NCBI GenBank assembly: GCA_964460795.1
Contig: CAYWRU010000001.1
Coordinates: 19,116-83,115 of the forward strand
From: an uncultured bacterium
GTDB lineage: Bacteria > Omnitrophota > Omnitrophia > Omnitrophales > Aquincolibacteriaceae
DNA length: 64,000 bases
Direction of reading: 5' to 3'
Below the pieces are notes generated by a model. The model did no database searches, was not told where the DNA came from, and worked only from the letters and a program-made list of their open reading frames with translations. The stretch's first letter is position 1. Every line of letters starts with the position of its first letter. A program made the translations under genes and the position numbers. Shown here piece by piece: positions 18,653-54,012 of this stretch.

Positions 18653-18870
18653 TCAGGCTCGTGTTCTATTTTGCGTGTTTCGGATCCTAACGTGAATCCC
18701 GGTAAGGCCGTCCTGGGGTGTACTAAGCTAGGAAACTCGAAGTCATCGCATTCGCAGCCCTCTATCAAGCACAGGCAGTAGCTGCCTGCGGGCCTAGCAT
18801 GCGGCATGAAATGCGTCTCATGGTCTTCGCGCAAATGGCCGCATATAGCGCACTTGGCCTTACTGTGCAT
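18649..18870 (-). CDS. Cys/His-rich small protein (73 aa)
   Basis: CAICGHLREDHETH...CLCLIEGCEC. Confidence 0.5.
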   Translation of the reverse strand: MHSKAKCAICGHLREDHETHFMPHARPAGSYCLCLIEGCECDDFEFPSLVHPRTALPGFTLGSETRKIEHEPE

Positions 18871-19210
18871 CTTCGTCTTTGTCCCGGCCCAGATCGTTGA
18901 AGCCGGTCTTTTCGCCTCGGGCCAGCTTCATACGGGCCAGCCGGATGCATTCCTCAAGCTCGCCCATGACCTCGTACGCCGTTTGGTGCTCTCGGGAGTA
19001 GTCCAGCACCTCGTCTTCGCTCAAGTGCTCGCACAACTTGTTACGAGCCGAGCGGTAGTAGTTGAGCCACTTCTCCATCGTCTGCAGATCCGATTCGCTG
19101 AGGTTGTCCTCGTCCATGCAGATGATGTCGGCCGTAAAGCCGCCAATCAGGCGAATCATGTCGGCCGCATAGTCCCGTTTTGCCTTTTCTTTCGCATCCC
19201 ATTCGGACAT
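18860..19210 (-). CDS. hypothetical protein (116 aa)
   Basis: Track ORF, helical and acidic. Confidence 0.55.
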   Translation of the reverse strand: MSEWDAKEKAKRDYAADMIRLIGGFTADIICMDEDNLSESDLQTMEKWLNYYRSARNKLCEHLSEDEVLDYSREHQTAYEVMGELEECIRLARMKLARGEKTGFNDLGRDKDEDAQ

Positions 19211-19215
19211 TGCAT

Positions 19216-19674
19216 CTACCCTTCGTCAGACTGTTGTTGCTTGGGCCGCAGCGTACCGTCCTGGTACAAACCTACTGTCGGCCCAATATCACGAGGCGGA
19301 TGCGTGAAGCAGTGCAGCAATACCGGCCTGGTGCCGATATGCCCGTCTACTTGAACACACGCACCGCCGAAATCTCCCGGCCCTCGCCGAGGCCGACTTA
19401 ACCAGTGCAAATGGTAGTCGGGCTTAAAACACTTAAGCAGTTCAGTCAGGCACAGTGTGTAGCCGGCCGTGTAACACTTACCATCTAGCCGCCCTCCCAT
19501 GATCTCAACCTCGGTGGGAAAGCAGTAGATTTCCCAAGGGGCGTTGGGCTTATCGTCCGGCGCTTGCCAGTACCAGCGAATTTCACCGGATGTCTCCAGC
19601 GGACTCATGGCCCCGATTACACGATCGATTAAACGCTGCATCCAACGCGGCGTGCTGCTCTTTTCCGGCTGCAT
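19216..19674 (-). CDS. hypothetical protein (152 aa)
   Basis: Track ORF. No motif recognised. Confidence 0.55.
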   Translation of the reverse strand: MQPEKSSTPRWMQRLIDRVIGAMSPLETSGEIRWYWQAPDDKPNAPWEIYCFPTEVEIMGGRLDGKCYTAGYTLCLTELLKCFKPDYHLHWLSRPRRGPGDFGGACVQVDGHIGTRPVLLHCFTHPPRDIGPTVGLYQDGTLRPKQQQSDEG

Positions 19675-34239: not shown

Positions 34240-34615
34240 TAACCCTCATGGCTGTCATGCGACCCCTCCGGTATCCCCTAACCGGAGTCCGGCTACTGCG
34301 GTGAACCGCAGCAGTTCGCGGTAACGAATCGGTACAGCTACCGCTCCACCTTACACGCCCCGGCGTCACCATGGCGTGCTTTCCTAGCCAAGCCGGTACA
34401 TCCTGTAACCGGCCCAACCTCCTAACCTGCCAGTACCTTTGGCAAAGTCGCATGAGGCCCATTTATCCTAATCGGCTGGGCCAGACCGTCCTATATAGAT
34501 TATCGGCGCTGCGGCTATCAGCTTCAACCAGCCCGAAGGCCTGTGGGTCATTCTAGGGCACTGAATCCGCAGGCTACTATTGCCCTTTATTCGCGGTATT
34601 ACCCGCCGACAATTG
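34240..34615 (-). ncRNA. candidate structured ncRNA or long structured leader (class unknown)
   Basis: 376 nt without a credible ORF in an otherwise gap-free genome. At least 9 local hairpins of 5-7 bp, including a C(UUCG)G tetraloop on the minus strand. Possible long-range GACCC/GGGTC closure. Confidence 0.4.
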
Positions 34616-35305
34616 TTATTCTTCCCGGCTTAGGTCGTCGAACATAACTTCCAGTTCCATGTCACCGATTCTGTCGCGGAGATCCGCTAGCTCTTTTTCA
34701 AGGAAAGCGATGCGTTTATCCTTCTCGTCACCCTCCTCAATAACTCCGTTGATTCGTTTAGCGTACGAATCAAGTTGGCCGAAGATGTATTCTTCGCGCG
34801 AAGGAATAAAGTCCTTGTTAGTATTCCACGGCTGCGGAACAAGGATGGCGTATCCGCCGGCTTCTCGGAAAGGGTCTACCTTGTGATCGTTGTCGTCTAC
34901 CAAGATAGTCTGCGGTGTAGCGCAGAATTCTTTGCGCGGACCAATCAAGTAATCACGGCAGTTGAATCCGCCGAAATGCTTCTGCATCCACTTGAGCTTG
35001 CCTGAAGCCGAAGTAGGGTGCGCGCTGGACGATGTAAGGAAGATTGTCTCACCTAGCGCTCGACACTCTTTCCACAGACGCTTAGCCCACGGCGTAAGCT
35101 CGATATCCAACCAGAAGTCTTCGCCGGCGGCGTCAATGCGTTTCCAGATGCCTGCTCGCTGCTCGCTTGTCAGGTGGTGCTTGCTCCACTGGCCGATGGC
35201 GTCAACAAGATCGGGCCGCTCTGCAGCCATTAGTCGAGCGGCTGCGCCGCAGAAGTCGCCCATCACTCCGTCAATGTCCAAACAGATTCTCAATTTCTTC
35301 TTCAT
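34616..35305 (-). CDS. HAD-family 5'(3')-deoxyribonucleotidase-like (229 aa)
   Basis: Motif I ICLDIDGVMGDF (DxDxV), motif II FLTSSS, motif IV ILVDDNDHKV. C-terminal coiled coil. Confidence 0.65.
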   Translation of the reverse strand: MKKKLRICLDIDGVMGDFCGAAARLMAAERPDLVDAIGQWSKHHLTSEQRAGIWKRIDAAGEDFWLDIELTPWAKRLWKECRALGETIFLTSSSAHPTSASGKLKWMQKHFGGFNCRDYLIGPRKEFCATPQTILVDDNDHKVDPFREAGGYAILVPQPWNTNKDFIPSREEYIFGQLDSYAKRINGVIEEGDEKDKRIAFLEKELADLRDRIGDMELEVMFDDLSREE

Positions 35306-36195
35306 TTCTTCTCCGAACTTTCTAACTCGTTCTCAACTTCGTCTGGTAATTTGTTCCATAAATCCAGCCCTGACCAGTGTTCGATGAAATCTACATCAAT
35401 GCGGTACTGCTGCGCCCAGGCTTCTCGAAGATCGAGAACCTCGTTAGGCAAGCAATAAGACCATATGTAGGGCTTGTCACCGAACTCTGCGAGCATGCAC
35501 TTAGCAAAGTGCGTTGGTACGGCCACATGATTAGGGCCGATTAGTTTGTACGTTACTGTGTCGTTTTCCGGCTTCCCTTGTTCTTCCGGTAAAGCCGGCA
35601 AGTACATCGGAATTGTGACCACCCAGATTTCTTCAACATCCTCTCGCTCCAGCATGTCTTTGCAATAAAGCTCTAGCCGTCGCCAAGGTCCACGATTGAA
35701 GCTGGGATTCTGCGGAGACACATTACGCAGATTGAACGTGGAGTCAATCAACGGCTGTGTTGCACGATGGGCGTCGGCCGAAGCCAAGTGACCGCGGTCA
35801 TAACCTGATCCGATGTAGTCTTTGAGCGATGCGCGCACTTCAACAGGTACAGAGGTATCTTCGTAGAAGTCACTGTTCTGTCGTTCGCCTAGCCCCTGAT
35901 ACGACTGTCGAGTAATGCGCTCCATTACCCACAAGGCATTGCGAGTACGCGGATCGTATGCAGCCAGGAAATCGCCAATACGCTCATATGCTGGTGACGG
36001 TGCGCCCCATTGAGACACTTTTGCCATAGCATCAGCATCAAACGGCACAGCCGGAGGCGCTTTGATAGCCTCCGGCTGTTGTGCTTTGCTGTCAGAGCTT
36101 ATGGTCTTAACGATGGCGCCTACGATCATCCAGAAGCCCACGAAGGCGCACAAGCAGAATACGATGTGTAAGCCGTGCCATTTACTTTGTTTCAT
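35302..36195 (-). CDS. membrane-anchored DNA/RNA non-specific endonuclease (EndoG/NucA family)
   Basis: ATG at 36195, a 14-nt overlap with the upstream gene. TM segment LHIVFCLCAFVGFWMIVGAIV. Catalytic GSGYDRGHLAS and NVSPQNPSFNRGPWRRLE. Confidence 0.8.
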   Translation of the reverse strand: MKQSKWHGLHIVFCLCAFVGFWMIVGAIVKTISSDSKAQQPEAIKAPPAVPFDADAMAKVSQWGAPSPAYERIGDFLAAYDPRTRNALWVMERITRQSYQGLGERQNSDFYEDTSVPVEVRASLKDYIGSGYDRGHLASADAHRATQPLIDSTFNLRNVSPQNPSFNRGPWRRLELYCKDMLEREDVEEIWVVTIPMYLPALPEEQGKPENDTVTYKLIGPNHVAVPTHFAKCMLAEFGDKPYIWSYCLPNEVLDLREAWAQQYRIDVDFIEHWSGLDLWNKLPDEVENELESSEKK

Positions 36196-37075
36196 AGTTT
36201 TTCCAAAACTCCTCAATGGCCTCTTGCCAGGTAGGCAGCTTAGGCCCGCCGGCGTCTTCAATGAACTTTGTGTTGTCTAGGACCACGCAGCCAGGATGCG
36301 CCCATTCGCTTAGCCCGCTGTCATAGTCGTGTACCGGCACGGGAATCGGTGTAAAGGCAATAGGTCCGCGCGCCAGGTGTTCAGCAAACTGGAAAGCCGA
36401 ACACGAATCCTGATTAGTTACGTTGTAGATGCCTGACAGGAATTCGTTATGGTGCGTAACCAGATACTTGATTGCTTTGGCCAAGTGCGGCAGGTACGTG
36501 AACGAGATCCGATGATCATTAGGCACTTCGAGTTTTCGCGCAATCTGACCACGCTCCAACATGACATGCGCAATAGAACGCTTGCTTGGGCGATCATACG
36601 AATTAAACAGCGTCGATGTACGAAGTACCCAGTAGCGGAAGCCGTTCTTCCAATAGTCGGGACACAAGCATTGGCCCATCCGCAGTACAGCGTGTTCACC
36701 GGCAATCTGTGCAAAGCCTTTCCAACTGCGCGATTTAACGGGAGAGCTTTCAGACAGCAGCTTATTTGTATAGAGACCTGAGAAGACCTTATCAGAGCTG
36801 ATGTTGATGAACTTAGCGCCCACTGCCGCACTGGCTTTGAGCAAGTTATCAACACCTGTGCTCAATACGTCCCACTGATAGTTGTTATCAGAGCCGCAAT
36901 GCGGCGCAGCCGTGTTGATTACAAACTCCGGCCGCAAGCTGTAAACGGCTTCCGTAACCTTGTCAGCCTTGGTGATATCCAATTGCTCACGAGTTTTTGG
37001 AAGCGTATCCGGCAATAGCTTGACCAACGCCTGGCCAAGTTGGCTGTTAGCACCGGTGATAAGGATCTTCGTCAT
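36182..37075 (-). CDS. NAD(P)-dependent sugar reductase/epimerase (RmlD-like)
   Basis: N-terminal Rossmann MTKILITGANSQLGQAL. Length and layout resemble dTDP-4-dehydrorhamnose reductase. Confidence 0.65.
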   Translation of the reverse strand: MTKILITGANSQLGQALVKLLPDTLPKTREQLDITKADKVTEAVYSLRPEFVINTAAPHCGSDNNYQWDVLSTGVDNLLKASAAVGAKFINISSDKVFSGLYTNKLLSESSPVKSRSWKGFAQIAGEHAVLRMGQCLCPDYWKNGFRYWVLRTSTLFNSYDRPSKRSIAHVMLERGQIARKLEVPNDHRISFTYLPHLAKAIKYLVTHHNEFLSGIYNVTNQDSCSAFQFAEHLARGPIAFTPIPVPVHDYDSGLSEWAHPGCVVLDNTKFIEDAGGPKLPTWQEAIEEFWKNYETK

Positions 37076-37093
37076 ATGGTTCCTATTTGATGT

Positions 37094-37324
37094 CTAGCCG
37101 GTAGCGTTGCGGTATTCTTTGCACTTGTGGGCGCCGCTATCTCCGAACAACCTCCAGCCGCGTGATGTTAGCACCCACTGCAGCCCTTGAAGTCCGCAGT
37201 ATCGGCATGTGGGGCTTTTAGGCGTCGACAGCTTTGCGCTGTACGATCCGTCTTCGTAATCGGCCTCCCAATCCCAGTAGTCCTGTAACGACTCATCCAG
37301 GTGGTCGTCTGCATGTTGTCCCAT
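37094..37324 (-). CDS. small Cys-containing protein (76 aa)
   Basis: CRYCGL...H.C. Start/stop junction with the next gene. Confidence 0.5.
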   Translation of the reverse strand: MGQHADDHLDESLQDYWDWEADYEDGSYSAKLSTPKSPTCRYCGLQGLQWVLTSRGWRLFGDSGAHKCKEYRNATG

Positions 37325-38151
37325 TAGTAGATCGTAATTTGCGATGGGTTAATGAACTGCCGATCAAAGCCGGCCTGGGCCATCCCTTGGTGCAAACATA
37401 CGTGCTCACAATCGGTCCCGGCATAGCAGGCGGACTTGTATGCATCCATCCTATAAACGCCTAATCCCCCAAAGCACGATTTAACAGGCACCACTGGATC
37501 GCCCAGGCGCGGCAACCACGGGTTGACTTGTCGCGCCGTCAACGGCGTATAGTCCGGATTGCGAAAGGCCCACACATCGTAGTGAACCCAGTTACCTAGT
37601 TTTCCCTTTGCCCACGAAACTGAGCCCATAAAGTCCCAGTCATTGTGGCCGATGGTATTAGCGATTCCGTCTACGCTCCAACAGCCGCTAAGGTCAGTAT
37701 CAGCTACAATCACGTAGTCGTAGTCGCCGTACTTAGCCAAAGCCTCTTTGCGGCAACGGTTGCGGTAATCAGCCAGATCAGCCATACGGCCAAGCTCTCG
37801 TGTAGCCGGCCAATGTTTGCGATTAAGCTGCTCGCTAATGATGTTCACGCGAGGGCTGATACTAGCCCACTCTTTGAGACGAGCAGGTGTGTCGTCTTTG
37901 CTGTCATTTTCAAAGATCACAACAGCATAGTCTTTGAACTTCTGCCCCGTGGCCTCGATCAACTCAATAGTCTGGTCTAAGCGATCGCCAAGGCTACGAG
38001 CCAAGCCGCAGATAACGACTCGGCTGTTTTCCATGCGCTTGTAGCCTTCCTTGACGTAAGCGTGGTAAGCCTCTTTGTTTGGCTCAAACATGCGGCCGGC
38101 AGGCGGCAGTAGATTGAGCATGTCGAAAGATTGTGCACGCGCGTTCAACAT
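37324..38151 (-). CDS. putative GT-A glycosyltransferase (275 aa)
   Basis: VVIFENDSKDDT and VIVADTDL (DxD). A palindromic element overlaps its start codon. Confidence 0.45.
   Translation of the reverse strand: MLNARAQSFDMLNLLPPAGRMFEPNKEAYHAYVKEGYKRMENSRVVICGLARSLGDRLDQTIELIEATGQKFKDYAVVIFENDSKDDTPARLKEWASISPRVNIISEQLNRKHWPATRELGRMADLADYRNRCRKEALAKYGDYDYVIVADTDLSGCWSVDGIANTIGHNDWDFMGSVSWAKGKLGNWVHYDVWAFRNPDYTPLTARQVNPWLPRLGDPVVPVKSCFGGLGVYRMDAYKSACYAGTDCEHVCLHQGMAQAGFDRQFINPSQITIY
38131..38150 (-). repeat. palindromic element copy
   Basis: The plus strand reads ttgtgcacgcgcgttcaaca. Covers codons 1-7 of 37324..38151. Confidence 0.7.
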
Positions 38152-38152
38152 C

Positions 38153-38815
38153 TTATTCTCCGGCCTTGTCGCGGGCTTCTTTTAGCAACGCTTTTACGAG
38201 CATATGCAGGACTTCGTTTCGCTCCTTTAGGTACGTCAACTGTTCCTTCCGTTCCTCCTCGGGCAAACCAACAAGGTACGCGGCAGTCTTTTCGGCCTCG
38301 ATCATAAGCTGTTCAGGAGTGATCGGCCGGCCTAGGTACGGCTTAAGGATGTCTGGGCGCTGCGTGGACTTTTGCGCGCGCAGTGTTGCTGTAAGGTTGC
38401 CTGACTCGTAATCGCGTAAGATTTTAACAATCTGCCACCGGCTGCGCGTGTAATGCCGACCGTAGCGTTGTCCGAGATCCGTTCGATCGTCAAGGTAGTC
38501 AAAGCTTCGCTCATCGTATGCCCGCTTATGTGTTGGATCGATCCAGAAGTTGCGACTGGTGTAGTGCGGCACTTGTACTGTGATTTCACAGCCGTCGCGC
38601 AGTATCAGGTGCGCTTCGTTGAAGAACGAGATGTAATCATCAAGATGCTCAAGCACGTCGATGGCCAGGATTTCGTCAACCGTGTCGATGGACCACGGCC
38701 AGGGCGTCTTATTCAGATCGTGGACTACATCTACACCTTCGTGGTCAGATACGTCCACGTTGCAATACCCTTCGCGGATATCGCCTCCGCAACCCAGGTT
38801 AAGCTTTAGTGACAT
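38153..38815 (-). CDS. SAM-dependent methyltransferase (220 aa)
   Basis: Motif I LNLGCGGDIREGYCNVD and post-I/II region VDEILAIDVLEHL. Confidence 0.7.
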   Translation of the reverse strand: MSLKLNLGCGGDIREGYCNVDVSDHEGVDVVHDLNKTPWPWSIDTVDEILAIDVLEHLDDYISFFNEAHLILRDGCEITVQVPHYTSRNFWIDPTHKRAYDERSFDYLDDRTDLGQRYGRHYTRSRWQIVKILRDYESGNLTATLRAQKSTQRPDILKPYLGRPITPEQLMIEAEKTAAYLVGLPEEERKEQLTYLKERNEVLHMLVKALLKEARDKAGE

Positions 38816-39612
38816 CGCGTATGCACAACTCCGTATTGGTTGGTAAGGACGCTGGACAGTACAAACTTCTCGTCTTCAGACAAGTGCCATACGCCGTACA
38901 TGTCTGGATCGGCGTATCGCTGCATGATGTGCTTGTGATCCCAAGTATTAGCGCCATGGTAGAACCGCATATACAGTTCCGGTCCCGGCGTCTTACCTGG
39001 GGCATTGTCGATGATCGTCGTCTTAGGAAAGTGATCAAGCAGGAAATGCGAGTCCTCGTGACGGGATTCCGATCGATACCGATACGGACTGCACGATTTG
39101 CGCACGTAGAGGTTGTTGGGCAGGTTTTGGAATGGCACAGGTACTTCGGTCACAATGGCATGCCGTGGGAAGCACACTGTTCCTGGAATGCCTGGAATCT
39201 TACCTGTCCACCGAATGGCATAGGCCGAATCGTTAACAAAGCTATATCGAATCTGCCAGTTCAGGAGGGTGGGCTGATCATACTCGTAGTCAGCCATCTG
39301 AACAGTTATGCGATCTGGGCCGTACCAGTCGTCGTCGTCCCACTGAATACACCAGTCGCCGGCAGCGTTGTCGACGGCTACGTTGCGAAGGTCGCCTAGG
39401 TTGCGACCGCCCGGCAAGAAGATTTCTTTGATTTGGGCGTTGGTACGAAATTCGTCGTCGTCAAGAGTCAACGGCTCGGGGCCGTCGTTGACGATGATTA
39501 GTTCTTTGTTTTCGTACGTTTGCGCTAAGAAAGACCGTATAGCGGCCTTAACGAGATGCTGGCGACCGGGCTTACCCGTCACCATTAGTGCGCTGACTAG
39601 AGGTTGATGCAC
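38806..39612 (-). CDS. family-2-like glycosyltransferase (268 aa)
   Basis: VSALMVTGKPGRQHLVKAAIRSFLAQTYENKELIIVNDG and GDWCIQWDDDDW. Paralogous block in 58846..59508. Confidence 0.65.
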   Translation of the reverse strand: MHQPLVSALMVTGKPGRQHLVKAAIRSFLAQTYENKELIIVNDGPEPLTLDDDEFRTNAQIKEIFLPGGRNLGDLRNVAVDNAAGDWCIQWDDDDWYGPDRITVQMADYEYDQPTLLNWQIRYSFVNDSAYAIRWTGKIPGIPGTVCFPRHAIVTEVPVPFQNLPNNLYVRKSCSPYRYRSESRHEDSHFLLDHFPKTTIIDNAPGKTPGPELYMRFYHGANTWDHKHIMQRYADPDMYGVWHLSEDEKFVLSSVLTNQYGVVHTRCH

Positions 39613-41061: not shown

Positions 41062-41265
41062 CTAGAGCCTTATGACGTTGATGGCGCATGGCCCGCTACG
41101 TCCTTGACCCATCTCGAAGCTAACTCGATCGCCTAGCTTAAGGTCGTCGAATTGCCGCTCGATAACACCGCTGCCGTTGAAAAATACATCGGACCCTTGA
41201 TCATCAGCTTCAATGAAGCCATAGCCTTTTCCTTGGTTAATGTGTACAACGGTTCCGTAATGCAT
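41062..41265 (-). CDS. cold-shock domain protein (CspA family, 67 aa)
   Basis: ATG at 41265. GTVVHINQGKGYGFIEADDQGSDVFFNGS..LKLGDRVSF carries the RNP1-like KGYGFI and RNP2-like VFF motifs. Confidence 0.85.
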   Translation of the reverse strand: MHYGTVVHINQGKGYGFIEADDQGSDVFFNGSGVIERQFDDLKLGDRVSFEMGQGRSGPCAINVIRL

Positions 41266-41275
41266 AGCAGTCCTT

Positions 41276-41476
41276 CTAACGCGACAACAGTCGTGGCGGC
41301 TGCAAGTGATCGATTGGGTACTCCGGATAGTCGTCCGAGAAATACTCCAACCAATCTTCTTCCGTCCACGCCTCGCTGTCGTCAGACACCACATCCTCTT
41401 CTCCGCTGTCAGGCGGGCATTGTCCACGGATGGCATAAGACAATGTCGTACAGTCCTCTGTGATTTGGTGCCCCAC
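41276..41476 (-). CDS. acidic small protein (66 aa)
   Basis: Track ORF, immediately downstream of the E1-like gene. Confidence 0.45.
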   Translation of the reverse strand: MGHQITEDCTTLSYAIRGQCPPDSGEEDVVSDDSEAWTEEDWLEYFSDDYPEYPIDHLQPPRLLSR

Positions 41477-41491: not shown

Positions 41492-42214
41492 TTAGGTTAC
41501 GACTGGTTCAGCGGCTGCAACTGCCGGCTCAGTATTGGCGTCAAAGTCAGCTACAGTCAATTCGCCGGCCAGCAAGTTGAGACTCATATCGCGGTCTACA
41601 TCGTAACCGCGCAAATATCGAGTGAACTGCTGGATCATAAGGCCGGCGGCGATGCCTGACGTATAGATCGTGCTCCGAGCGGTACAAGCGCCTTGCTGCG
41701 CTTGCTCAGGAGCGAACAACGTCTTCGGATAGTACTTGGCGTCAGGATCACTGCTGACGGCCAGAATACGCATGACTTCTCCAAGCATTCGCCCATCGGC
41801 ATAGAAGCGGCTAGCTTTACCGCCGTTCTCCCAGATGGACTGGCGAACCTTGATCGAATCGACGCAGCAGAACATCTGCGGCTTTGAATACTTGCCGCGA
41901 TATACGTCGTCAATTGCCGTGACTTCACATTCGGGATCAATTTCCAGTAATGCCGCTTTCAGAGCTTCGACTTTCTTCATTCCCACATCCGCAAGGCGGT
42001 AGCCTTGGGTAGTTCGGTTGTGGTCTTCGACAGTGTCGAAGTCGATAATCGTCAAACGCCGAACACCCATGGCGACCAACTGAATGGCCACCTGTCGTCC
42101 GATTGCGCCTACGCCGATTACCGCAATGTTAGCCTCTGCCATCTTCGCCGCCGGGACAAAGCCCGACTGGCGAATGAAACGATCAGTAGGCTTAGTCGAC
42201 GAATCCGTCATCAT
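41492..42214 (-). CDS. ThiF/MoeB/E1-like adenylating enzyme (240 aa)
   Basis: RFIRQSGF..ANIAVIGVGAIGRQVAIQLVAMGVRRLTIIDFDTVEDHNRTTQ, i.e. a Rossmann GxGxxG plus the D..N..R of E1-like enzymes. Overlaps the JAB gene by 23 nt. Confidence 0.8.
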   Translation of the reverse strand: MMTDSSTKPTDRFIRQSGFVPAAKMAEANIAVIGVGAIGRQVAIQLVAMGVRRLTIIDFDTVEDHNRTTQGYRLADVGMKKVEALKAALLEIDPECEVTAIDDVYRGKYSKPQMFCCVDSIKVRQSIWENGGKASRFYADGRMLGEVMRILAVSSDPDAKYYPKTLFAPEQAQQGACTARSTIYTSGIAAGLMIQQFTRYLRGYDVDRDMSLNLLAGELTVADFDANTEPAVAAAEPVVT

Positions 42215-43649
42215 GCCCTCCTAGCATGTGCGCCGACGCCATTTGTCCTTCGGACTCTTCGGCAGCGTCGGCTTGTTGATTGTGGTCAGCAATTTCCTGT
42301 ACTGACATCGAGTTGACTTCGGACTCCCAAGCGGCGAGTTCTCGCTCAAGTTCCGCTTCGTCCTCAGCCTCGTCCGGTTGAATGATGGCGTCGATTTCGA
42401 TGTCGGCATTGCGTTTTTGCTCAGCCTCTTCGAAACGCTCCCAATCAGCGTCTGTGATTTCTTCAAGCGGCTTGTCGCCGAAGAACTTGGAAGCACGCTC
42501 GTTTAGACTGATTGTGCGATCATCGTCGTCATCGTCGTCATCTTCCGAATCCGGAACGGTCGGATCGTCCAAATCACCGATGCTGTACATCGATGTGATG
42601 ACGTCTTCCGCCATTTCTTCCCAGCGAAGGAGTTCGCCTTCCTCCCACTCTTCTTGAGTGAGCGTATGTATGTCCTTCGCATTGAGTTCAGCGATGCGAT
42701 CACCGCGAGCAATCCATGCGCCGGACTCTTCTTTCGCCACACGTCGGAGGATGGTCTTCCAGCCGTCCAGCGTGAGGCTGTCCGGACACGAATTGGCGAT
42801 GTAATCGTCGGCGGCAGCGGCCTTGGCATCTTCTTCGTCTTTGCGTAGACGGCGAGCTTCTTCCGCGTCCTCCGCGCTTACTTGATCCCGATACGTCGTA
42901 ATAGGAGGTAAGCCGCGTGTTTGATAAACGGAAGGAAGCCGGTGCCCTGGGATTCCGTTGACATCAAGGGCTTCTCCGTCATCGGAGAAGATTTGTCCTT
43001 GGCGAACGGCACTGCGACTGATGTGAGGATGCGCGACCCCTTTCGAGGGCGCCGGCGTCCAAACCTCCCGCGAGCAGCAGTCTTCGTACTCAGCAATCCA
43101 TTCGTCATAGTTGACGCCCGGAAATGCGCAATCGGTGGTAACTTCCACCGGCAGCGTCATGGCGTAACCGGGGCCAGCCGTGTACTTAAGCCGGCAATAT
43201 GTATCACCGCCCTTAGCGATGATGAACATGACGGACCAAGCTGGAGCACCAAAGCATTTGGCGAACGTAGCTTCGTCAACTCCGGACGGCGATGGCGAAG
43301 AACCAGGGTGAGTATGGATCCATACTCGGAAGCACTGATCCATCGTGTAGCCAAGTTCGGCCATATCTTCGACGTACGCATTTACTGCGTCTTCGTCGAA
43401 TTCGACGGTAACCGAACTGCACACCTGTTTGATCATCATCACATCTTCGATGAACAGCGGGTTGTCCGCTGCGCCGACACCGAAGAAGCCTACCTCGGTA
43501 TCGCCGAGATCGCGAATGAATTTGAGCTTAGCCCAGGCGTATGGGCTAAAGACGATCTTGTTTCGAAGCTTCGGGGGCTCCGGTACGAAATACTTCGCGA
43601 CCTTCATGGGAGTAACTGATTTGCCCTTCGACGCTACGTTAGGACTCAT
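42192..43649 (-). CDS. JAB/MPN+ (JAMM) metalloprotease with long acidic C-terminal extension
   Basis: Exact JAMM signature: DTE90VGFF...H150-T-H-PGSSPSP-S160-GV-D163 (nt 43275-43316). I chose the ATG at 43649, an 11-nt overlap with the E2-like stop. The track start is 43763. Confidence 0.75.
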   Translation of the reverse strand: MSPNVASKGKSVTPMKVAKYFVPEPPKLRNKIVFSPYAWAKLKFIRDLGDTEVGFFGVGAADNPLFIEDVMMIKQVCSSVTVEFDEDAVNAYVEDMAELGYTMDQCFRVWIHTHPGSSPSPSGVDEATFAKCFGAPAWSVMFIIAKGGDTYCRLKYTAGPGYAMTLPVEVTTDCAFPGVNYDEWIAEYEDCCSREVWTPAPSKGVAHPHISRSAVRQGQIFSDDGEALDVNGIPGHRLPSVYQTRGLPPITTYRDQVSAEDAEEARRLRKDEEDAKAAAADDYIANSCPDSLTLDGWKTILRRVAKEESGAWIARGDRIAELNAKDIHTLTQEEWEEGELLRWEEMAEDVITSMYSIGDLDDPTVPDSEDDDDDDDDRTISLNERASKFFGDKPLEEITDADWERFEEAEQKRNADIEIDAIIQPDEAEDEAELERELAAWESEVNSMSVQEIADHNQQADAAEESEGQMASAHMLGGHDDGFVD

Positions 43650-45078
43650 CGTTGTACTCTCGATGGTTGTATTGGAAGTATGGGGTGTGGCCGTAGGCTG
43701 TTCCGCGCGCTTCTGCGACAGACTCTTGTCTTTGTTCTTCCGACGTTTGTTCTTCCGTCCCATTGGCTTCCTTTGCCTCTTCTGCTTCGTCTACTTCAGC
43801 AATTGCTTCCGCGATTACGGATTCAATTTTGATAGGGGACGACGGAATTGTTAGAGTTTCAGTGGATTCTTGATTCAACGCCTCGGCTTCAGCGTCTTCG
43901 GCAGCTTTCGCTTTGGCTTCAATTTCTTCGTCGATCTGCTCCATGCACCGTTCGCACATGGCCTTGCCGGCAAACTGCTTATGCTCGGGCGCATCTTCCG
44001 GGCATGTCCAGCCGTGCTGATTGGTTTCAGCTAGACAGGCTGTGCAGCATGTCCTGTCGCACTTTGCGCATTTACCAACACAGTCGTCGGAATTCGAGCA
44101 AGTCGACTCAGAGCAAGCGTCGCACGTAGTGCGGCAGTTAGAGCAAAGCGAATTACTGCACCAAACGCAGGTGGCCGTGCAGCCGGCGCACGCGATGCGT
44201 TCATGGCATCCTTGGCACGAGTAATCTTCGCCGTACGTAGGATCGCCACAGTCATCACAATATGGCGCATTATCATCGTCCTCGTCGTCATCGCTTTCAT
44301 CCCAGACGTCCATTTCGTGGTACGCTGCGCCTGGGTTGTACACGCGAAGAATAGCCAACCACATGGTTAGCGCGTCTACGATAAGGCCTTCGTCCAAGGC
44401 GGTAGAGATAACTCCACCATGGTCGCCTTCGCATAGAACGCCGCCAGACATGTGCGGATGATAGTAACCGTGACCGGACCGAGAGTCTTCACTCATTGGC
44501 GTCACGTTCATAGGCCGCGACCGGCTATACTCCCACAGGTTCATGCGGATGCAGAACTGGCCCATATTCATCTTGGCCGGCTTGCCGTTCAGATCCGTGT
44601 AATCAAGCGTAATCTCTTCAGTGATCACCTCGATGTACGTTTTGGCTGCCGTATTACCGCGATAGAATTTGCATGACACGAACGGTACATCGCGCATGTC
44701 GCGCAGCTTTTTGAGATCGTGGAGGATGCCGTTAACATCGGACGAAGCATCAACGAAGCTGTTTCGCCGTTCTAACTCGGAAGCAATGATAACGATCTCC
44801 GCATGCGCATCGCGCAGAGCGTTAACAAGCTTCTGGTTTTCGGCTTTCGCCGCTTCGGCGTCCCCTTTTGACTGCGCCTTTTCCAACGCTGCTGTTAAAG
44901 TTACGACCGTGTCCCAGCGGCTTTCCATCATGCGCCAGTTAATAGGCGTTAGTGGGCTGCTTTTCTGGGCGCCGTACTTATATGTCTCACGTTCCGGAAT
45001 TTGCTCGGCGATTTTCTTGGCCATGAGAAGAAGCTGCTTATCGCTAAGCGTTACTTCTTCAAAGCCGGCTAAAGTCAA
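43639..45078 (-). CDS. E2 (UBC)-like protein fused to CxxC-rich zinc module (479 aa)
   Basis: TTG start with AGGAG upstream. UBC-like core around aa 115-255: FCIRMNLWEY..PMNV..YHPHMSGGVLC216EG..LIVDALTMWLAILRVYNP. Nine CxxC pairs in aa 274-378. Acidic tail. Confidence 0.55.
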   Translation of the reverse strand: MTLAGFEEVTLSDKQLLLMAKKIAEQIPERETYKYGAQKSSPLTPINWRMMESRWDTVVTLTAALEKAQSKGDAEAAKAENQKLVNALRDAHAEIVIIASELERRNSFVDASSDVNGILHDLKKLRDMRDVPFVSCKFYRGNTAAKTYIEVITEEITLDYTDLNGKPAKMNMGQFCIRMNLWEYSRSRPMNVTPMSEDSRSGHGYYHPHMSGGVLCEGDHGGVISTALDEGLIVDALTMWLAILRVYNPGAAYHEMDVWDESDDDEDDDNAPYCDDCGDPTYGEDYSCQGCHERIACAGCTATCVWCSNSLCSNCRTTCDACSESTCSNSDDCVGKCAKCDRTCCTACLAETNQHGWTCPEDAPEHKQFAGKAMCERCMEQIDEEIEAKAKAAEDAEAEALNQESTETLTIPSSPIKIESVIAEAIAEVDEAEEAKEANGTEEQTSEEQRQESVAEARGTAYGHTPYFQYNHREYNDES

Positions 45079-45088
45079 GGTTCTCTCC

Positions 45089-45123
45089 TAGCTAAAAAAG
45101 ACGGGGCGGCTTTCGCCGCCCCG
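45089..45123 (-). terminator. rho-independent terminator with TAGCTA box between Ubl and E2-like genes
   Basis: Minus strand: CGGGGCGGC-gaaa-GCCGCCCCG, then TCTTTTTTAGCTAGGAG. Confidence 0.7.
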
Positions 45124-45162
45124 CCCGTGATTCAACCTAGGCCCGGCTGCTCCGCAGCGGGG

Positions 45163-45420
45163 TTAGGCTACGAGGGCGCCCTCGATCTTTTGCGGCGTCA
45201 CAGTGACGGAGTCGCCGTCCTTCAACGTAGCGCCAGCCGAGGTGCTCTCTCGGTTGACCTTCACGTTGAAACGCTCAAAAGCGACCGAGGCCGACACGCC
45301 GAGCTTCGTCTCCAGAAGCTGGCCTACCGTATAGTTCGCAGGCACTTCGATGTTATCGACACCGCCGCCCGTGTTGCTGTTCAAAAACCGAATCTTGACC
45401 GTTTCGAAACCGCTACCCAT
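45163..45420 (-). CDS. ubiquitin-like beta-grasp protein (ThiS/MoaD-like, 85 aa)
   Basis: VKIRFL..NIEVPANYTVGQLLETKL..FNVKVNRE..ATLKDGDSVTVTPQKIEG-ALVA. The spacing matches the beta-grasp pattern, with a Gly near the C-terminus followed by a 4-residue tail. Confidence 0.6.
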   Translation of the reverse strand: MGSGFETVKIRFLNSNTGGGVDNIEVPANYTVGQLLETKLGVSASVAFERFNVKVNRESTSAGATLKDGDSVTVTPQKIEGALVA

Positions 45421-45491: not shown

Positions 45492-46151
45492 TTAGAAGCC
45501 CGTTAAACTGACTTTCTTTGGCCGTTGCGCTTTGCGCGTGCTTGGGCCTTTTACCCTATTAGCACGACACCGATACGAACCCGTGCTGTCAAATTCCTCA
45601 GTGAGCCAGCCTTGTCGCCGCAGGTTGTACAACTCTTGTACGGCGATATGTGTTTCAACGGCTTTGCGCTCAAACGCGGAATCGACCTCTGAATTTATCG
45701 GCAGCTTATTACGCTTCTGCAGCCAGGTAACCAACTCCGGCACGTTAGCCTTGTGTCCTACCGCATCGGCGATTTCAGACAAAGTGTGCCATTCGTAATC
45801 CGATCGGAGATACTCCCGAACGGCTTCAGTGGTTATACCGTAATCGCTTTTGGTCTCGCGCTCCTTCACTGGAAGAAACTTTAACGTCAGCGTATTTCCG
45901 GATCCGCGCACTTCTACGCTATGTCCTTTGATAAGCTTTTTAACGTAGTCTTGCGCGAATAATGTGCGACCCATTCGTTGCTTTTGATCGCCTGTCAGCT
46001 TACTACCGTCAATGTTTCGCTTTGGCTCATAATGCCGATAAGCGTGCATCGCTTCTTCTGCCGACATAATCTTAGCGACACGTATAACCGCGTCGCTTTG
46101 ACCGATCCAGTCGTTGCCGATTGCTTCCCTAACTAGTAACTGGTGAGGCAT
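45492..46151 (-). CDS. hypothetical protein, possible winged-helix C-terminus (219 aa)
   Basis: WHTLSEIADAVGH..VTWLQKR and ELYNLRRQGWL. Weak call. Confidence 0.5.
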   Translation of the reverse strand: MPHQLLVREAIGNDWIGQSDAVIRVAKIMSAEEAMHAYRHYEPKRNIDGSKLTGDQKQRMGRTLFAQDYVKKLIKGHSVEVRGSGNTLTLKFLPVKERETKSDYGITTEAVREYLRSDYEWHTLSEIADAVGHKANVPELVTWLQKRNKLPINSEVDSAFERKAVETHIAVQELYNLRRQGWLTEEFDSTGSYRCRANRVKGPSTRKAQRPKKVSLTGF

Positions 46152-47238
46152 TTTTGTTCATCAGTCGTTCGCATGTTGCATGCACTCGACGTATGGCGCT
46201 ATCCATGGTGTTAATTTGCGCCATGTTCATTCCACCCATAGAGCCATACGAGGACATTCGGCTTTCGTACTTGTCGTTCAACTTATCAAACATGCGACAA
46301 GCTTTCATGAACTCGTCAAATGCGATTTCGTCTCGCGATCGTTTCTTTTTGGTTCGGCTTTCAGCTAACGAGCCGGGTTCCTCGTTGGCGTACTTTTCCG
46401 ACAGCGCTTCAGCCACACTAAGCCGAACTTGGACTTCGGCATGCTTGGACACTTCTTTGATCATGGCGTCCAATTGCCGGCCGTTCAAACTGCCTGTCAC
46501 GACGGCGTACGCTAATGCATAGAGCGTTTCATGCTCGTCGCGGAAGCAATACAGGCTGGCTAGCATCTCGTCGGTAAACACCGCGCTATCAGCCTTAATC
46601 ACTTCCATTGCTACCAGCTTGGCGTGAATAGCGTCGGCATGCAGCGAGGCGTAGAGGTCTTCTACTTTTACGCCGCTGGCGTCGGCCGCGTCTGTTGCCG
46701 GCACTTTGTTTTCACAAAGTTCTTTAGCGAACTGCAGGCACTCGTTGTACGTCGGCGGCATACCGTGGGTGCGGTTGGCGTCGCGGGCGAAACGCTTCAA
46801 GAGATCCGGAGTATACGTGCCTTCTTCAAGAACGTACGCTTCGATGTATTCAAACTTAGCCTTGATAGCAGCGGTAATGCGCTGGTTGCCGGACAAAGTC
46901 GAATACATGCCATTGCCTAGCCGTACCAGTACAGGGCGCGGGAATCGATCGTAATTCGGTTTCGCCATGTCGACGAAATACCGAGTTACGGCATCTTTTA
47001 CGATGGTTCCGTCGGGTCGAGGATTGATACCGAGGCTATGTTCCCGGTCAACAGATGTGAGTGGAACGATTTCAATTTTGACTGGAAATCGATATTTAGC
47101 CAGAAGCGACTCGGCCATTAAACATGGCCCCCAGTGCGACTGCACCGAACACTGGGTTTCAAGCGGCAACGTCCGTGTTTGATGAATTTGCGTTGCAGGA
47201 GTTGCGGCAACCAGCCGATCTCCAAGGGTGACGGACAT
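46129..47238 (-). CDS. ParB/Srx N-terminal-domain-like protein (369 aa)
   Basis: SD GAGGAAAA. VKIEIVPLTSVD...PVLVRLGNGMYSTLSGNQRITAAIKA resembles the ParB-type GxxR..A box. Confidence 0.5.
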   Translation of the reverse strand: MSVTLGDRLVAATPATQIHQTRTLPLETQCSVQSHWGPCLMAESLLAKYRFPVKIEIVPLTSVDREHSLGINPRPDGTIVKDAVTRYFVDMAKPNYDRFPRPVLVRLGNGMYSTLSGNQRITAAIKAKFEYIEAYVLEEGTYTPDLLKRFARDANRTHGMPPTYNECLQFAKELCENKVPATDAADASGVKVEDLYASLHADAIHAKLVAMEVIKADSAVFTDEMLASLYCFRDEHETLYALAYAVVTGSLNGRQLDAMIKEVSKHAEVQVRLSVAEALSEKYANEEPGSLAESRTKKKRSRDEIAFDEFMKACRMFDKLNDKYESRMSSYGSMGGMNMAQINTMDSAIRRVHATCERLMNKNASPVTS

Positions 47239-47607: not shown

Positions 47608-49002
47608 CTAGGCTAAGTGGTCAATAGCCCGCGCAGCCGCTAGTTCTTCGGTGTCGGCAATTTGATTGGCTATTTCGATACATCTGTTTTGGAACTCGGC
47701 ACCGGTCTCACCATCGCCGGCAGCAACCGCCTTATCGATCATGTCGGGCCAATCCACCAAAATCCGTGTCGCCAGTTTACGGCGCCCGGCTTCATTCAGA
47801 GGCAGCATCTCGACTTTGTAATCGACGCGCCCGTCCCGCACCAAAGCGCTATCCAATTTGGATGCGTCGTTAACGGTAAGAATTACAATAATACCATCGC
47901 GACGTTTAACGCCGTCAATAGTATTGATGAATGTACGAAACGATACGCCGCCGGCGATTGTTTCGTCTTTGTTAAATACGCGGTCTATGTCTTCGAACAA
48001 AGCGATGCACGGAGTGAATGCAGTGACCTTGTTCCAAGCGGCCGTAAACTCATGCGTATGCATGCTGGACAAATCAATAGAGTACAAGCGGAGGTCCAGC
48101 GAATACGCTATAGCTTGAGCAAATGCCGACTTACCGGTACCAGGAAGCCCGTACAATTGCATACCGCGCTGCCACGGCAGTCCGCGGTCTTTGTACCACT
48201 TCTCCGAGCGGAACCAATGCTGTATTCGCTTTAACGCTAATTCAGCCTGATCCGGTAACCACATGTCTTTAATCGGATCGCCGGAGGATTTGTATTGATC
48301 CAAGGTTTTCTTGTCGTGAACAAGCGTTCTTACATGCTCGAACCGACGCAACCCATGGCCCATACCTATCGCCGTAATAAGCTCGTTTACGTCGCCTTGC
48401 CCGCCGCTTTGACCGGACGAAGGCTCGCGGACTACCGTGTTGTTTTGTCCGTAAGATCCAGTTAGATGCGTGATACAGTAGCGCTCTTTAAGCTCAGGGT
48501 CTCTCTTATCCTCATCGGCGGCTAACCTGTTGTAGGCTTCGACAATATGTGCCTCTACGTCGAACGTGCCGCGTAAATAAGTGATGGAGACGCAGTTAGG
48601 CGACCTGGCCGTGCTGCCGGCGGGTGCCGGAGCGACGCCGCCGTTAGATGTACCACTGCCTAAGTGATCAGGTATGGCATTTGTTACCCATACCGGAATC
48701 CAGCCTTTCCAGAACAGAACGCCGGCCGGACCCATTCGCTCAAACGGGATTGTACGATATTTGGACTCTATCGGCACATAAGCTCTATCGGAGCCATAAC
48801 GCGCCGGTCCAAGCTTGGTCGTCTTGTATTTATCTTGAAGCACTACAAGAAGAACGTAACCAACCTGATCGTTTACTTCGGCGGTCATGATGAAGTAGTT
48901 CACTACAGACAACAGCATTAGTCGCGCCCGGCTCCAGGCTGCAATAAGCAAACCAGAGCTAGCGGCGAGAATGCCGACCCAAATTCCTTTTGATGTGTCC
49001 AT
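47608..49002 (-). CDS. BCS1-like membrane-anchored AAA+ ATPase (464 aa)
   Basis: N-terminal TM IWVGILAASSGLLIAAW. Walker A GLPGTGKSAF, Walker B ALFEDIDRVF. VSFRTFINTIDGV and RDGRVDYKVEM resemble Bcs1 (LTFSGLLNALDGV, RPGRVD). Confidence 0.7.
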   Translation of the reverse strand: MDTSKGIWVGILAASSGLLIAAWSRARLMLLSVVNYFIMTAEVNDQVGYVLLVVLQDKYKTTKLGPARYGSDRAYVPIESKYRTIPFERMGPAGVLFWKGWIPVWVTNAIPDHLGSGTSNGGVAPAPAGSTARSPNCVSITYLRGTFDVEAHIVEAYNRLAADEDKRDPELKERYCITHLTGSYGQNNTVVREPSSGQSGGQGDVNELITAIGMGHGLRRFEHVRTLVHDKKTLDQYKSSGDPIKDMWLPDQAELALKRIQHWFRSEKWYKDRGLPWQRGMQLYGLPGTGKSAFAQAIAYSLDLRLYSIDLSSMHTHEFTAAWNKVTAFTPCIALFEDIDRVFNKDETIAGGVSFRTFINTIDGVKRRDGIIVILTVNDASKLDSALVRDGRVDYKVEMLPLNEAGRRKLATRILVDWPDMIDKAVAAGDGETGAEFQNRCIEIANQIADTEELAAARAIDHLA

Positions 49003-53151: not shown

Positions 53152-54012
53152 CTAGCCGCCGTGGTTTTCGGCAAGCTCGCCAAGCTGCTTCACGCGCTCG
53201 GCCACCTTTTCGTAAGTGTCCTGTTGAAGCGCAACCGCGCCGATCAGGAGTTCTTTCATCTGTGCGAACGTGAAACCGTCCGACAGTTCGACGAGATGCG
53301 TAATCTTCTCGTCGTCCAGTTCACCTTGGCTGAGCTGCGTGACGTACTTTGTCCGAATGTTCTTCGGCACCGGCCCAACTTCAATCTGGCGATCAATGCG
53401 CGACGGGCGATACAGGATACGCGCCGGAATGGCGTTCAGGTCGTTGGCCGTGGCCAAGTACATGATGCCGTTGCGTGTGGTTCCGAAACCGTCGAGGATT
53501 TTCAACCACCAGTCTTCAAGGCGGGCGTTGTTCTTGAGCAACGAATCGAAGTCGTCCATGATCGCCAACATAGGGCGATCCGGCTCGTACTGGTTGAGCT
53601 TGTTGAAGCAGCCGTAGAACCCGTCCGGTTTTTCGTTGACGATGGCGACGAGGCCGTCCATCTTGATGATCTTGCCGGCGAACTGGCGAACGATGGCCGT
53701 TTTGCCTGTGCCAGGAGGGCCGTGCAATACGATGCCGCGTTTGTGGGTGAGGCCCCATTTGCGGTATCGGGGCGCTGCCGCCCAGAAGGCCTTGAACTCT
53801 TGGAAGAGCGTCGTGACGCGTTCGTCGTCGTCGCTTTCCACGAGCATGTCTTCTTGTGCCTTATCTTGTTCGGCGTGTACGTTGCCGAACATATCGCGGG
53901 AGAAACGATAGGCGCCGGCCGGAAGGCGATCCGGCATGCGTTCTTTCTGCTGCAGAGCCGAGGTCATGAAAGAGTTGTCACCGGTCATCTGCCAAGCAAT
54001 CTGCGCGCTCAT
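53152..54012 (-). CDS. classical AAA+ ATPase (286 aa)
   Basis: Walker A LHGPPGTGKTAI, Walker B AIMDDFDSLL, second region of homology YRPSRIDRQIEV. Confidence 0.8.
   Translation of the reverse strand: MSAQIAWQMTGDNSFMTSALQQKERMPDRLPAGAYRFSRDMFGNVHAEQDKAQEDMLVESDDDERVTTLFQEFKAFWAAAPRYRKWGLTHKRGIVLHGPPGTGKTAIVRQFAGKIIKMDGLVAIVNEKPDGFYGCFNKLNQYEPDRPMLAIMDDFDSLLKNNARLEDWWLKILDGFGTTRNGIMYLATANDLNAIPARILYRPSRIDRQIEVGPVPKNIRTKYVTQLSQGELDDEKITHLVELSDGFTFAQMKELLIGAVALQQDTYEKVAERVKQLGELAENHGG

Follow-up and report, generated by a model that had tools for sequence, protein, structure and literature searches.

In bacteria, the conjugation of ubiquitin-like proteins (Ubls) is currently known as a host defence, in the form of Bil, type II cyclic oligonucleotide-based antiphage signaling systems (CBASS) and probably Bub. 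In Bil, the E1 (BilD) is a multidomain enzyme made up of IAD, AAD and a mobile CYS domain (10.1101/2023.09.26.559546), and the Ubl (BilA) has an obligatory C-terminal Gly (10.1101/2023.09.04.556158). The five types of E1/E2/JAB operon described by Iyer et al. in 2006 include no HPH-type E2 with a zinc tail (PMC1779556), and a survey of 224 jumbo phages from the same laboratory mentions no Ubl system (PMC7824862). Here we describe a cassette of four genes, encoding a Ubl, an E2-like protein, a JAB peptidase and an E1, on the minus strand of a 64-kb stretch (the window, in whose numbering all positions are given) of the 174.7-kb contig CAYWRU010000001.1. We consider it probable that the cassette is a self-contained module for Ubl conjugation and deconjugation, carried by a large phage-like genome and serving the infection cycle of the phage itself.

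A preliminary description of this DNA, made from its letters alone, had read the cassette as a virus-borne, Bil-like cascade and had proposed roles for it that are not known to have been described for a phage-encoded cascade. Our literature search came upon no description of a phage-encoded E1/E2/JAB/Ubl cascade, subscription-only papers lying outside its reach. What appears to be new at this locus is the E2 family, the terminus of the Ubl and the probable carriage of the genes by a virus.

Comparison with described ubiquitin-like systems

Like Bil, the cassette keeps Ubl, E2, JAB deubiquitinase and E1 as four separate genes arranged in that order, and it has the same predicted logic of a thioester cascade, but the two differ in several respects. 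BilD is a multidomain enzyme, whereas the window E1, with 240 amino acids (aa), has a single domain of ThiF type; BilA, frequently a double beta-grasp, has Gly as its last residue, whereas the window Ubl has a single predicted beta-grasp and a KIEGA end followed by a tail. The E2 of the window joins an HPH-x6-C core to a multi-zinc domain and is unmatched by defence hidden Markov models (HMMs), and the carrier is a phage-like genome. PADLOC returned no family for the Ubl or for the E2-like protein at E-values up to 1. Since E1 architecture, Ubl terminus and HMM membership all speak against such an assignment, and the shared gene order alone is insufficient for it, the cassette is not a Bil system, though in its predicted chemistry it works like one, and the earlier label ‘Bil-like’ is given up here.

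Type II CBASS resembles the cassette in its E1/E2 plus JAB logic: the best PADLOC matches of the window E1 are CBASS Cap2 models (adenylation part alone, E 1e-16), and the JAB is distantly Cap3-like. Cap2, however, is an E2-E1 fusion that conjugates a CD-NTase, whereas the window encodes a separate E1, a separate E2 and a dedicated Ubl; no CD-NTase/nucleotidyltransferase was detected among the neighbours scanned with Pfam, PHROGs and NCBIfam. Without the fusion and without a CD-NTase, the cassette is therefore not a Cap2/Cap3 system. In Bub (6E/DUF6527), too, divergent bacterial forms of Ubl, E1 and E2 are accompanied by a peptidase, and the Ubl needs processing. The window differs in encoding its peptidase separately, as a JAMM enzyme, and in conserving Cys, not Ser, in both the E1 (C177) and the E2 (C216); on these grounds Bub was set aside as well.

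A minimal single-domain E1 and a small ThiS/MoaD-like beta-grasp protein are also seen in SAMP/UbaA/HvJAMM1 and in ThiS-ThiF/MoaD-MoeB, and the archaeal JAMM enzyme deconjugates. Those systems have no E2, end in GG and double as sulfur carriers, whereas the window has a linked E2-like gene and a GA end. The TAPI/TAPK proteins of lambda and T1 are a phage pairing of beta-grasp and JAB, in some versions with a C-terminal extension on the Ubl; they come without E1 or E2 and from the tail cluster, while the window holds a full cascade among early/replication genes. The PRTRC cassettes of plasmids and integrative and conjugative elements resemble the locus as mobile cassettes around a ThiF-type E1. 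Identity with PRTRC was rejected: the E1 scored 23.2 bits against PRTRC_ThiF (cut-off 144.75 bits), the 369-aa protein encoded upstream had no ParB match, and no further PRTRC model was found among eight proteins (those of the four cassette, two upstream and two downstream genes).

The four genes and their products

The four open reading frames (ORFs) follow one another on the minus strand from 45420 down to 41492 and, as the ORF listing confirmed, have the positions and motifs given in the preliminary description (YHPHMSGGVLCEG with C216, HTHPGSSPSPSGVD, IAVIGVGAIGRQV and DFDTVEDHNRTTQ). The Ubl gene (45163..45420) encodes a predicted beta-grasp modifier precursor of 85 aa that ends in ...TPQKIEGA-LVA; the E2-like gene (43639..45078; 479 aa) has a TTG start behind an AGGAGA ribosome-binding site; the JAB/JAMM gene (42192..43649) encodes 485 aa from Met39; and the E1 gene (41492..42214) encodes a minimal adenylating enzyme of ThiF/MoeB type (240 aa). 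The proposed composition, that of a Ubl conjugation and deconjugation cascade, was borne out by a ThiF match at 5e-23, an exact JAMM motif, a beta-grasp Ubl and hints of a UBC-like protein. A chance array of ORFs is not a credible explanation, because each of the four has a homologous family and their order recurs in unrelated contigs; the order Ubl, E2-like, JAB and E1 was found again in L017, L018 and L020 and in 37 fully scored loci.

The E2-like protein comprises an N-terminal helical region (aa 1-127), a UBC-like core (aa 128-265; 44284..44697, minus strand), a Cys-rich zinc domain (aa 272-380) and a disordered acidic tail. Within the core lie the HPH motif (aa 207-209; 44452-44460) and the candidate catalytic Cys216 (44431-44433), and the multi-CxxC zinc-binding domain (43939..44265, minus strand) has about eight Cys pairs. 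The protein found no match in Pfam, PADLOC, NCBIfam or PDB sequences and nothing at E < 1e-3 in PHROGs, and PDB sequence searches with the protein and with its family profile gave nothing meaningful. An exhaustive HMMER search with aa 1-262 returned 323 homologues (representatives at 50% identity). Across 81 E2-like sequences, G173, H207, P208, H209, C216, L244 and Y247 are invariant and a C-terminal CxxC array is present, its Cys columns nearly invariant; Pfam matches among these members were limited to occasional B-box (3e-5), ZZ (1.6e-4) and Siva zinc fingers. The result is a previously unnamed family with an HPH-x6-C core and a zinc domain, for which neither Pfam nor NCBIfam holds a model. 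The zinc region, modelled confidently by AlphaFold as beta-hairpins and with a weak ZZ (p62) match for aa 272-302 in the PDB sequence search, is a candidate module for substrate recognition or of E3-like kind.

AlphaFold modelled the full-length E2-like protein with a predicted local distance difference test score (pLDDT) of 81.5 and the core (aa 108-268) with one of 90.4, and the order of elements in the core model (helix, beta-meander, HPH loop, Cys216, helices) is that of UBC domains. When the core was compared with the PDB using Foldseek, UBC and UEV proteins crowded the top of the list, all at E > 0.1 (0.14-1.6). UbcH7 was among them (template modelling [TM] score 0.48-0.50, probability 0.84), and Ubc2, UbcA1, the Tsg101 UEV, UBE2F, UBE2R1, Ube2V1 and Ube2g2 were further entries; the corresponding search with the full-length model was uninformative, as the long N-terminal helices dominated it. 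An hhalign comparison of the family with six canonical E2 sequences gave an E-value of 6.4e-4 and placed HPH on HPN, Cys216 on the catalytic Cys and NPxS on NPxxP. The UBC/E2-like core claimed in the preliminary description thus stands as far as the register of HPH and Cys with HPN and Cys and the UBC-like model go, while Foldseek and hhalign both remained sub-threshold. We regard the protein as a divergent UBC-like E2, an assignment that is moderately supported by its model and conserved residues.

As a single sequence the Ubl gave a weak Pfam match to ThiS (3e-3, under the cut-off). The alignment of its family (A6, 38 members) matched a ThiS/MoaD/ubiquitin mini-alignment in hhalign with a probability of 93% and an E-value of 2.6e-7, and the family profile retrieved MoaD, SAMP2, PF1061 and a TGS domain from the PDB. 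By these profile matches the Ubl is a single beta-grasp fold. Of the two folds claimed at the outset, the beta-grasp was therefore recovered at 93%, and for the UBC fold the relevant entries ranked at the top with none at E < 1e-3. The C-terminus is the best conserved part of the Ubl, with K78, G81 and A82 invariant in 38 homologues. KIEGA is the exact C-terminal end in 19 of 120 homologues, and most others are 1-4 residues longer; in the window the tail after KIEGA is LVA. Because KIEGA is a conserved end at whose Ala 19 of the 120 stop exactly, the mature protein more likely ends at Ala82 than at Gly81, which the preliminary description had taken as the site of JAB trimming, and processing of the tail by the linked JAB is the obvious inference. 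Two of the 120 homologues are head-to-tail Ubl-Ubl fusions, which would require processing. The fusions read ...KIEGAA-RLLFINNDGGGF... and ...KVEGAVE-MIKVLYINNDG..., a polyubiquitin-like arrangement. Several homologues have tails of 20-50 aa with a common W-E-P-x-x-G-S motif, which may partly be read-through in another frame of the start of the E2-like gene.

The JAMM motif of the JAB is exact (H150-x-H152-x7-S160-x2-D163 in the numbering of the 523-aa ORF; 43275-43316), with E90 as the upstream Glu. The protein matched the PADLOC JAB model (2.5e-7), its homologue in L017 scored above the Prok-JAB cut-off of Pfam, and weak alignments with Rpn11 and the Prp8 MPN domain spanned the JAMM motif; an acidic, helical C-terminal extension of about 300 residues follows the JAB domain. 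The E1 consists of one Pfam ThiF domain (5e-23, aa 23-205), has TcdA, Uba1, MoeB and UBA5 as its neighbours among PDB sequences, and displays GxGxxG (aa 34-39), Arg15, Asp119 and a crossover-loop Cys177; no rhodanese, zinc or inserted CYS domain was found in its 240 aa. It scored far under the equivalog cut-offs (81.9 versus 159 bits for ThiF, 46.8 versus 376 bits for MoeB). Conservation in 87 cassette-linked homologues is complete for R15, G34, G36, D58, N66, K81 and D119, 99% for G39 and D60, and 97% for C177, a residue which, from our own alignment with MoeB and ThiF sequences, we take to be at the position of ThiF C184 and MoeB C187.

The start of the JAB gene is ambiguous: taken from 43763, the alternative start, the longest ORF has 523 aa and shares 125 nucleotides (nt) with the E2-like gene. 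Met39 (43649) was chosen by the gene caller on an identical short contig, and the sister contig L018 is likewise without a long overlap at the junction of the E2-like and JAB genes; a start at Met39, giving 485 aa, is most likely. The overlaps are then 11 nt between the E2-like and JAB genes and 23 nt between the JAB and E1 genes, which suggests translational coupling of E2-like protein, JAB and E1. Between the Ubl and E2-like genes lies a terminator-like hairpin (45099..45126, minus strand), whose 12-bp stem with 10 G-C pairs is followed by TTTTTT and whose RNA fold has a predicted energy of -49 kcal/mol (z = -4.9; 0 of 200 shuffles as stable). L018 has a hairpin of other sequence at the equivalent position between the Ubl and E2-like genes (9947-9974). 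The hairpin is probably a partial intrinsic terminator, which would leave more message for the Ubl than for the enzymes.

Distribution of the family and nature of the carrier

The preliminary description missed that the cassette is not unique, being one member of a large and hitherto unnamed family found in Planctomycetota and on IMG/VR contigs, with analogues in cultured phages. Species-representative genomes were searched with the degenerate DNA pattern HPHV-x4-LCEG[DE], and matches were confirmed by the family HMM. The search yielded at least 120 loci (120 of 120 confirmed); the counts that follow are among the matches listed. Planctomycetota (Planctomycetaceae, Pirellulales, Phycisphaerae and relatives) account for 76 of 80. 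Of the 99 genome loci with enough flank, 86 have the Ubl gene ahead of the E2-like gene; JAB and E1 follow the E2-like gene in the genome loci, and Ubl, JAB and E1 were all detected in 37 of 160 E2-like matches, despite the shortness of the loci. About one third of the loci have an upstream set consisting of an AAA+ ATPase, a DUF1257 protein, a 320-aa helical protein and a 70-aa protein, with the AAA+ gene upstream of the E2-like gene in 13 of the 41 loci that have enough upstream DNA, as well as in L018. Large serine recombinases lie just upstream in 11 loci and the L020 cassette stands beside a tyrosine integrase and two serine recombinases, which suggests that some cellular copies are on mobile elements. 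Cellular copies are patchy, sometimes with several per genome. Matches outside Planctomycetota came from metagenome-assembled genomes of a Candidatus Shapirobacteria (L026), a Nitrososphaerota archaeon (L076) and a Verrucomicrobiota (L088); such rare matches could be binning contamination, viral contigs in bins or horizontal transfer.

A looser pattern found 37 loci in IMG/VR, of which 29 hold true E2-like genes, on contigs of 4.8-208 kb; most of the 29 are accompanied by Ubl, JAB and E1, and their E1s are 28-46% identical to that of the window. Searching IMG/VR with the single E2-like protein gave no match, and neither did BLAST searches of the cassette DNA and the E2-like proteins against INPHARED phages and PLSDB plasmids. 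The closest relative, contig L018 (82 kb), keeps the synteny from the AAA+ gene through the glycosyltransferases. On a 138-kb viral contig (IMGVR_UViG_3300047585_000208; L177, 642-4148), three consecutive ORFs match the E2-like profile at 1e-28, 5e-27 and 4e-24, a local triplication of the gene. The E2-like gene of another contig (IMGVR_UViG_3300037493_004552; L008, 7909-8736) appears to be split by an in-frame stop after ...GYQHPHIQSN; all ORFs at this locus are short, and the contig may use a reassigned stop codon.

The replicon that carries the cassette looks like a large phage, as had been proposed. Its fused RNA polymerase (2869-7332, minus strand; 1487 aa) joins beta (Rpb2 domains) to an N-terminal portion of beta' (Rpb1 domains 1-2). 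Along 96% of its length this polymerase shares 31% identity with the enzyme of Salmonella phage Arash; identity to the polymerases of 187-kb Vibrio phages is about 30%, and the full-length matches (94-96%) are in cultured phages of 180-187 kb (Arash and Vibrio D181, D148 and D69). In the near-identical contig L179 a separate 648-aa gene with Rpb1 domain 5 (17323-19269) lies about 3 kb downstream of the RNA polymerase. A phage-type ATP-dependent ligase, an exonuclease and a deoxynucleoside monophosphate (dNMP) phosphatase are among the PHROG matches of the window, and its 71 ORFs of at least 110 aa, most of them without a family, all lie on the minus strand and cover 82% of it. The polymerase and the ligase named in the preliminary description were thereby confirmed; its ‘fibres’ were not, there being no structural-protein PHROG in 72 window ORFs, and hallmark genes were not found. 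On this evidence the window is very probably of viral origin.

Clusters of similar layout occur in named phages. The window E1 finds ThiF homologues in 29 records of Flavobacterium psychrophilum phages (FpV1-4, FpV20, FpV21 and FPSV; Fipvunavirus), in the crAss-like cr85_1, cr106_1 and cr128_1, in Dulem virus 41 and in 15 IMG/VR contigs, and the record annotation of the cultured phiCrAss001 hints at a homologue there. In FpV4 and cr128_1 the genes encode, in order, a protein with a Ubl-like N-terminus, an H-S-H protein, a JAB and a ThiF, and the cluster shares a gene block with primase, uracil-DNA glycosylase and exonuclease genes. The first protein has 200-290 aa, and its Ubl-like N-terminal region of about 90 residues ends in ...K-x-K-S-G-A/G, which resembles the K-I-E-G-A of the window and suggests a shared JAB cleavage site; the middle protein (400-435 aa) has an H-S-H ... 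C-x-G motif, and the JAB motif is HSHx7SGTD. The putative Ubl is here the N-terminal domain of a larger protein (FpV4 gp53, L021 1634-2503; cr128_1 gp086, L180 1156-1761) with an extension of 100-200 aa, and hhalign gave no alignment between the N-terminus of gp53 and the Ubl profile. Compared with BFVD using Foldseek, the E2-like core matched six uncultured-virus proteins (E 7e-7 to 3e-4), a crAss-like virus protein (1.4e-3) and the 435-aa cr128_1 protein (0.07); a 420-aa entry at 2e-3 has the length of FpV4 gp52, and its identity could not be checked. With these matches, the synteny and the shared K-x-x-G-A end as its basis, a link between the E2-like family and the middle protein of FpV4 and crAss-like phages is plausible, not established.

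Two lineage-specific genes (369 and 219 aa; 45492..47238, minus strand) separate the Ubl gene from an upstream AAA+ gene. They had no family match in the family scans, and their homologues are found only in the syntenic L018, so that they are not conserved cassette partners. The AAA+ ATPase (464 aa; 47608..49002, minus strand) lies 2.2 kb upstream of the cassette, belongs to the classical clade (Pfam AAA 5e-18) and has Cdc48, FtsH, PAN and Mpa as its nearest NCBIfam models; it is homologous to the AAA+ gene that recurs, though not universally, upstream of cassettes elsewhere. A second classical-clade AAA+ ATPase is encoded at 53152-54012 (minus strand). The recurrence of AAA+ genes near the cassette, often together with DUF1257, raises the possibility of a pairing of Ubl and unfoldase. 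The gene that directly follows E1 (41062-41436, minus strand) encodes a protein of 124 aa whose C-terminal part is a cold-shock domain (phrog_729); L018 has kept it in this position, its cold-shock domain protein being called there at 75 aa. A sugar-modification block (34600-39612, minus strand) contains a GT2 glycosyltransferase (38806-39612), a nucleotide-sugar epimerase and a glucosyltransferase (PHROG), and is syntenic with the GT2, CAP59-type mannosyltransferase, epimerase and NT5C genes of L018.

Proposed role and alternative explanations

From the chemistry of E1, E2 and JAMM enzymes and the residues conserved here, one can propose how the enzymatic steps would run, where cleavage would fall, and what the targets and the role of the system would be. 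With a partial terminator behind its gene, the Ubl would be made in excess over the enzymes, and the JAMM peptidase would cut off the LVA tail and expose the ...KIEGA end. The ThiF-type E1, probably as a homodimer, would adenylate the C-terminus of the Ubl and probably load it onto Cys177, whence it would be handed to Cys216 of the divergent UBC-like E2. The fused multi-zinc domain would pick the target, and the E2-like protein would in that case act as E2 and E3 in one. The Ubl would finally be joined to an amino group of the target, a step that the JAB could undo, and the phage or host protein so modified would serve the phage's own infection cycle. We favour such a role because two lytic-type phage groups have analogous clusters as fixed parts of their replication modules, because the cassette is old in its lineage (43-68% identity to the sister phage versus about 25-30% to cellular E2-like proteins) and because it sits among early-type genes.

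Several observations weigh against this interpretation. The E2 assignment is weakened by the absence of any Pfam UQ_con or Prok-E2 match among the 81 E2-like members, by Foldseek matches of the core to the PDB that include none at E < 1e-3 and reach a TM score of about 0.5 at best, and by an hhalign probability of 28% against canonical E2s. The window Ubl scores below the Pfam gathering cut-off, and the window JAB matches Pfam Prok-JAB at 1.8e-3, also under the cut-off. The connection to FpV4 and crAss-like phages suffers from an E-value of 0.18, not significant, between the gp52 family and the E2-like profile in hhalign, and the link of HPH to HSH leans on Foldseek E-values of 2e-3 to 0.07. 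The capsid, portal and terminase genes by which the preliminary description had hoped to see viral origin confirmed did not appear: 72 window ORFs compared with PHROGs include no capsid, portal, terminase or tail gene, and the 10 kb beyond the RNA polymerase in the near-identical contig hold no virion genes. Lastly, the cellular copies could be defence systems like Bil.

That last point leads to the alternative in which the same chemistry tags and disables the virion proteins of competing phages, as a Bil-like antiviral function or superinfection exclusion. Known bacterial Ubl/E1/E2/JAB operons (Bil, type II CBASS) are antiphage defences, the gene order of the cassette is that of bilABCD, and the cellular copies, patchy, sometimes multi-copy and in 11 loci adjoining large serine recombinases, look like typical mobile defence cargo. 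Against this, PADLOC has no model for the Ubl or the E2-like protein and relates the E1 to the adenylation part of Cap2 alone, the E1 architecture is unlike that of BilD, and an analogous cluster is fixed in the replication block of 15 related IMG/VR contigs and 29 Flavobacterium phage records. Such fixation in the Fipvunavirus/crAss-like replication block is better explained by a core phage function than by accessory cargo for defence, and we think a defensive role unlikely, though a serious rival. A further doubt concerns the replicon, which might be a plasmid, an integrative element or a bacterial island carrying one more cellular Ubl operon. The want of structural phage genes in 64 kb and about 10 kb beyond, the abundance of the E2-like family in Planctomycetota chromosomes and the homologous cassette beside an integrase and two serine recombinases would suit that explanation; the full-length matches of the fused polymerase in cultured 180-187-kb phages, the phage-type ligase, dNMP phosphatase and exonuclease, the 82% coding on a single strand with mostly ORFans, the absence of a plasmid match in PLSDB and the 29 IMG/VR viral contigs with the same family make it rather improbable.

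Two other readings dispense with conjugation. The Ubl could be a cleavable N-terminal or a stand-alone chaperone-like domain that is cut by the JAB, with the 479-aa protein otherwise employed. Phage pairs of Ubl and JAB without E1 and E2 have been described, with tail assembly proteins I and K of lambda as the proposed case (Iyer et al. 2006, PMC1779556), the Ubl of FpV4 and cr128_1 is fused to a C-terminal region of 100-200 aa after ...SGA, and the evidence for the E2 fold is sub-threshold. However, the E1, with its conserved Cys and intact ATP site, is never missing and would have no role in simple cleavage, and an invariant HPH-x6-C within a UBC-like model does not easily find another explanation, which leaves this reading with little probability. 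Alternatively, E1 and Ubl could form a sulfur-carrier pair of ThiS/ThiF or MoaD/MoeB type for a thiolated cofactor, nucleotide or natural product, as the best family matches of the E1 (ThiF, MoeB and TcdA), the weak ThiS and MoaD matches of the Ubl and the label ‘thiamine biosynthesis protein ThiF’ on the homologue in cultured-phage records might suggest. This we consider very improbable, because all E1 scores lie far under the equivalog cut-offs, the Ubl ends in GA plus a tail rather than GG, E1 and Ubl stand in strict linkage with a JAMM peptidase and with a UBC-like protein that bears a Cys, and neither the family scans of the window nor the conserved neighbours yielded a ThiG, ThiH, MoaE or other sulfur-transfer or synthase partner; the E1 also has no rhodanese domain, and tandem Ubl fusions exist.

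Beyond the conjugation module of this one phage-like genome, it may tentatively be suggested that viruses of several unrelated prokaryotic lineages (a jumbo-type phage probably infecting Planctomycetota, Fipvunavirus phages and some human-gut crAss-like phages) carry their own complete Ubl conjugation among early/replication genes, built on an unrecognised family of UBC-like E2s. ‘Viral ubiquitylation’ would then be a normal step of infection, and some loci may couple it to a Cdc48/PAN-like AAA+ unfoldase. Since the look-alike clusters are present in cultured, tractable phages (FpV1-4, FpV20 and FpV21), role and targets are directly testable. Very few phages of Planctomycetota are known, and the family is a marker that links this uncultured 175-kb phage to the phylum. 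If our interpretation is true, an HPH-x6-C active site joined to zinc fingers marks a new E2 family, the Ubl has an unusual ...GA end, and a phage-encoded cascade would place Ubl chemistry in the service of the virus against its host, as is the case for eukaryotic viruses.

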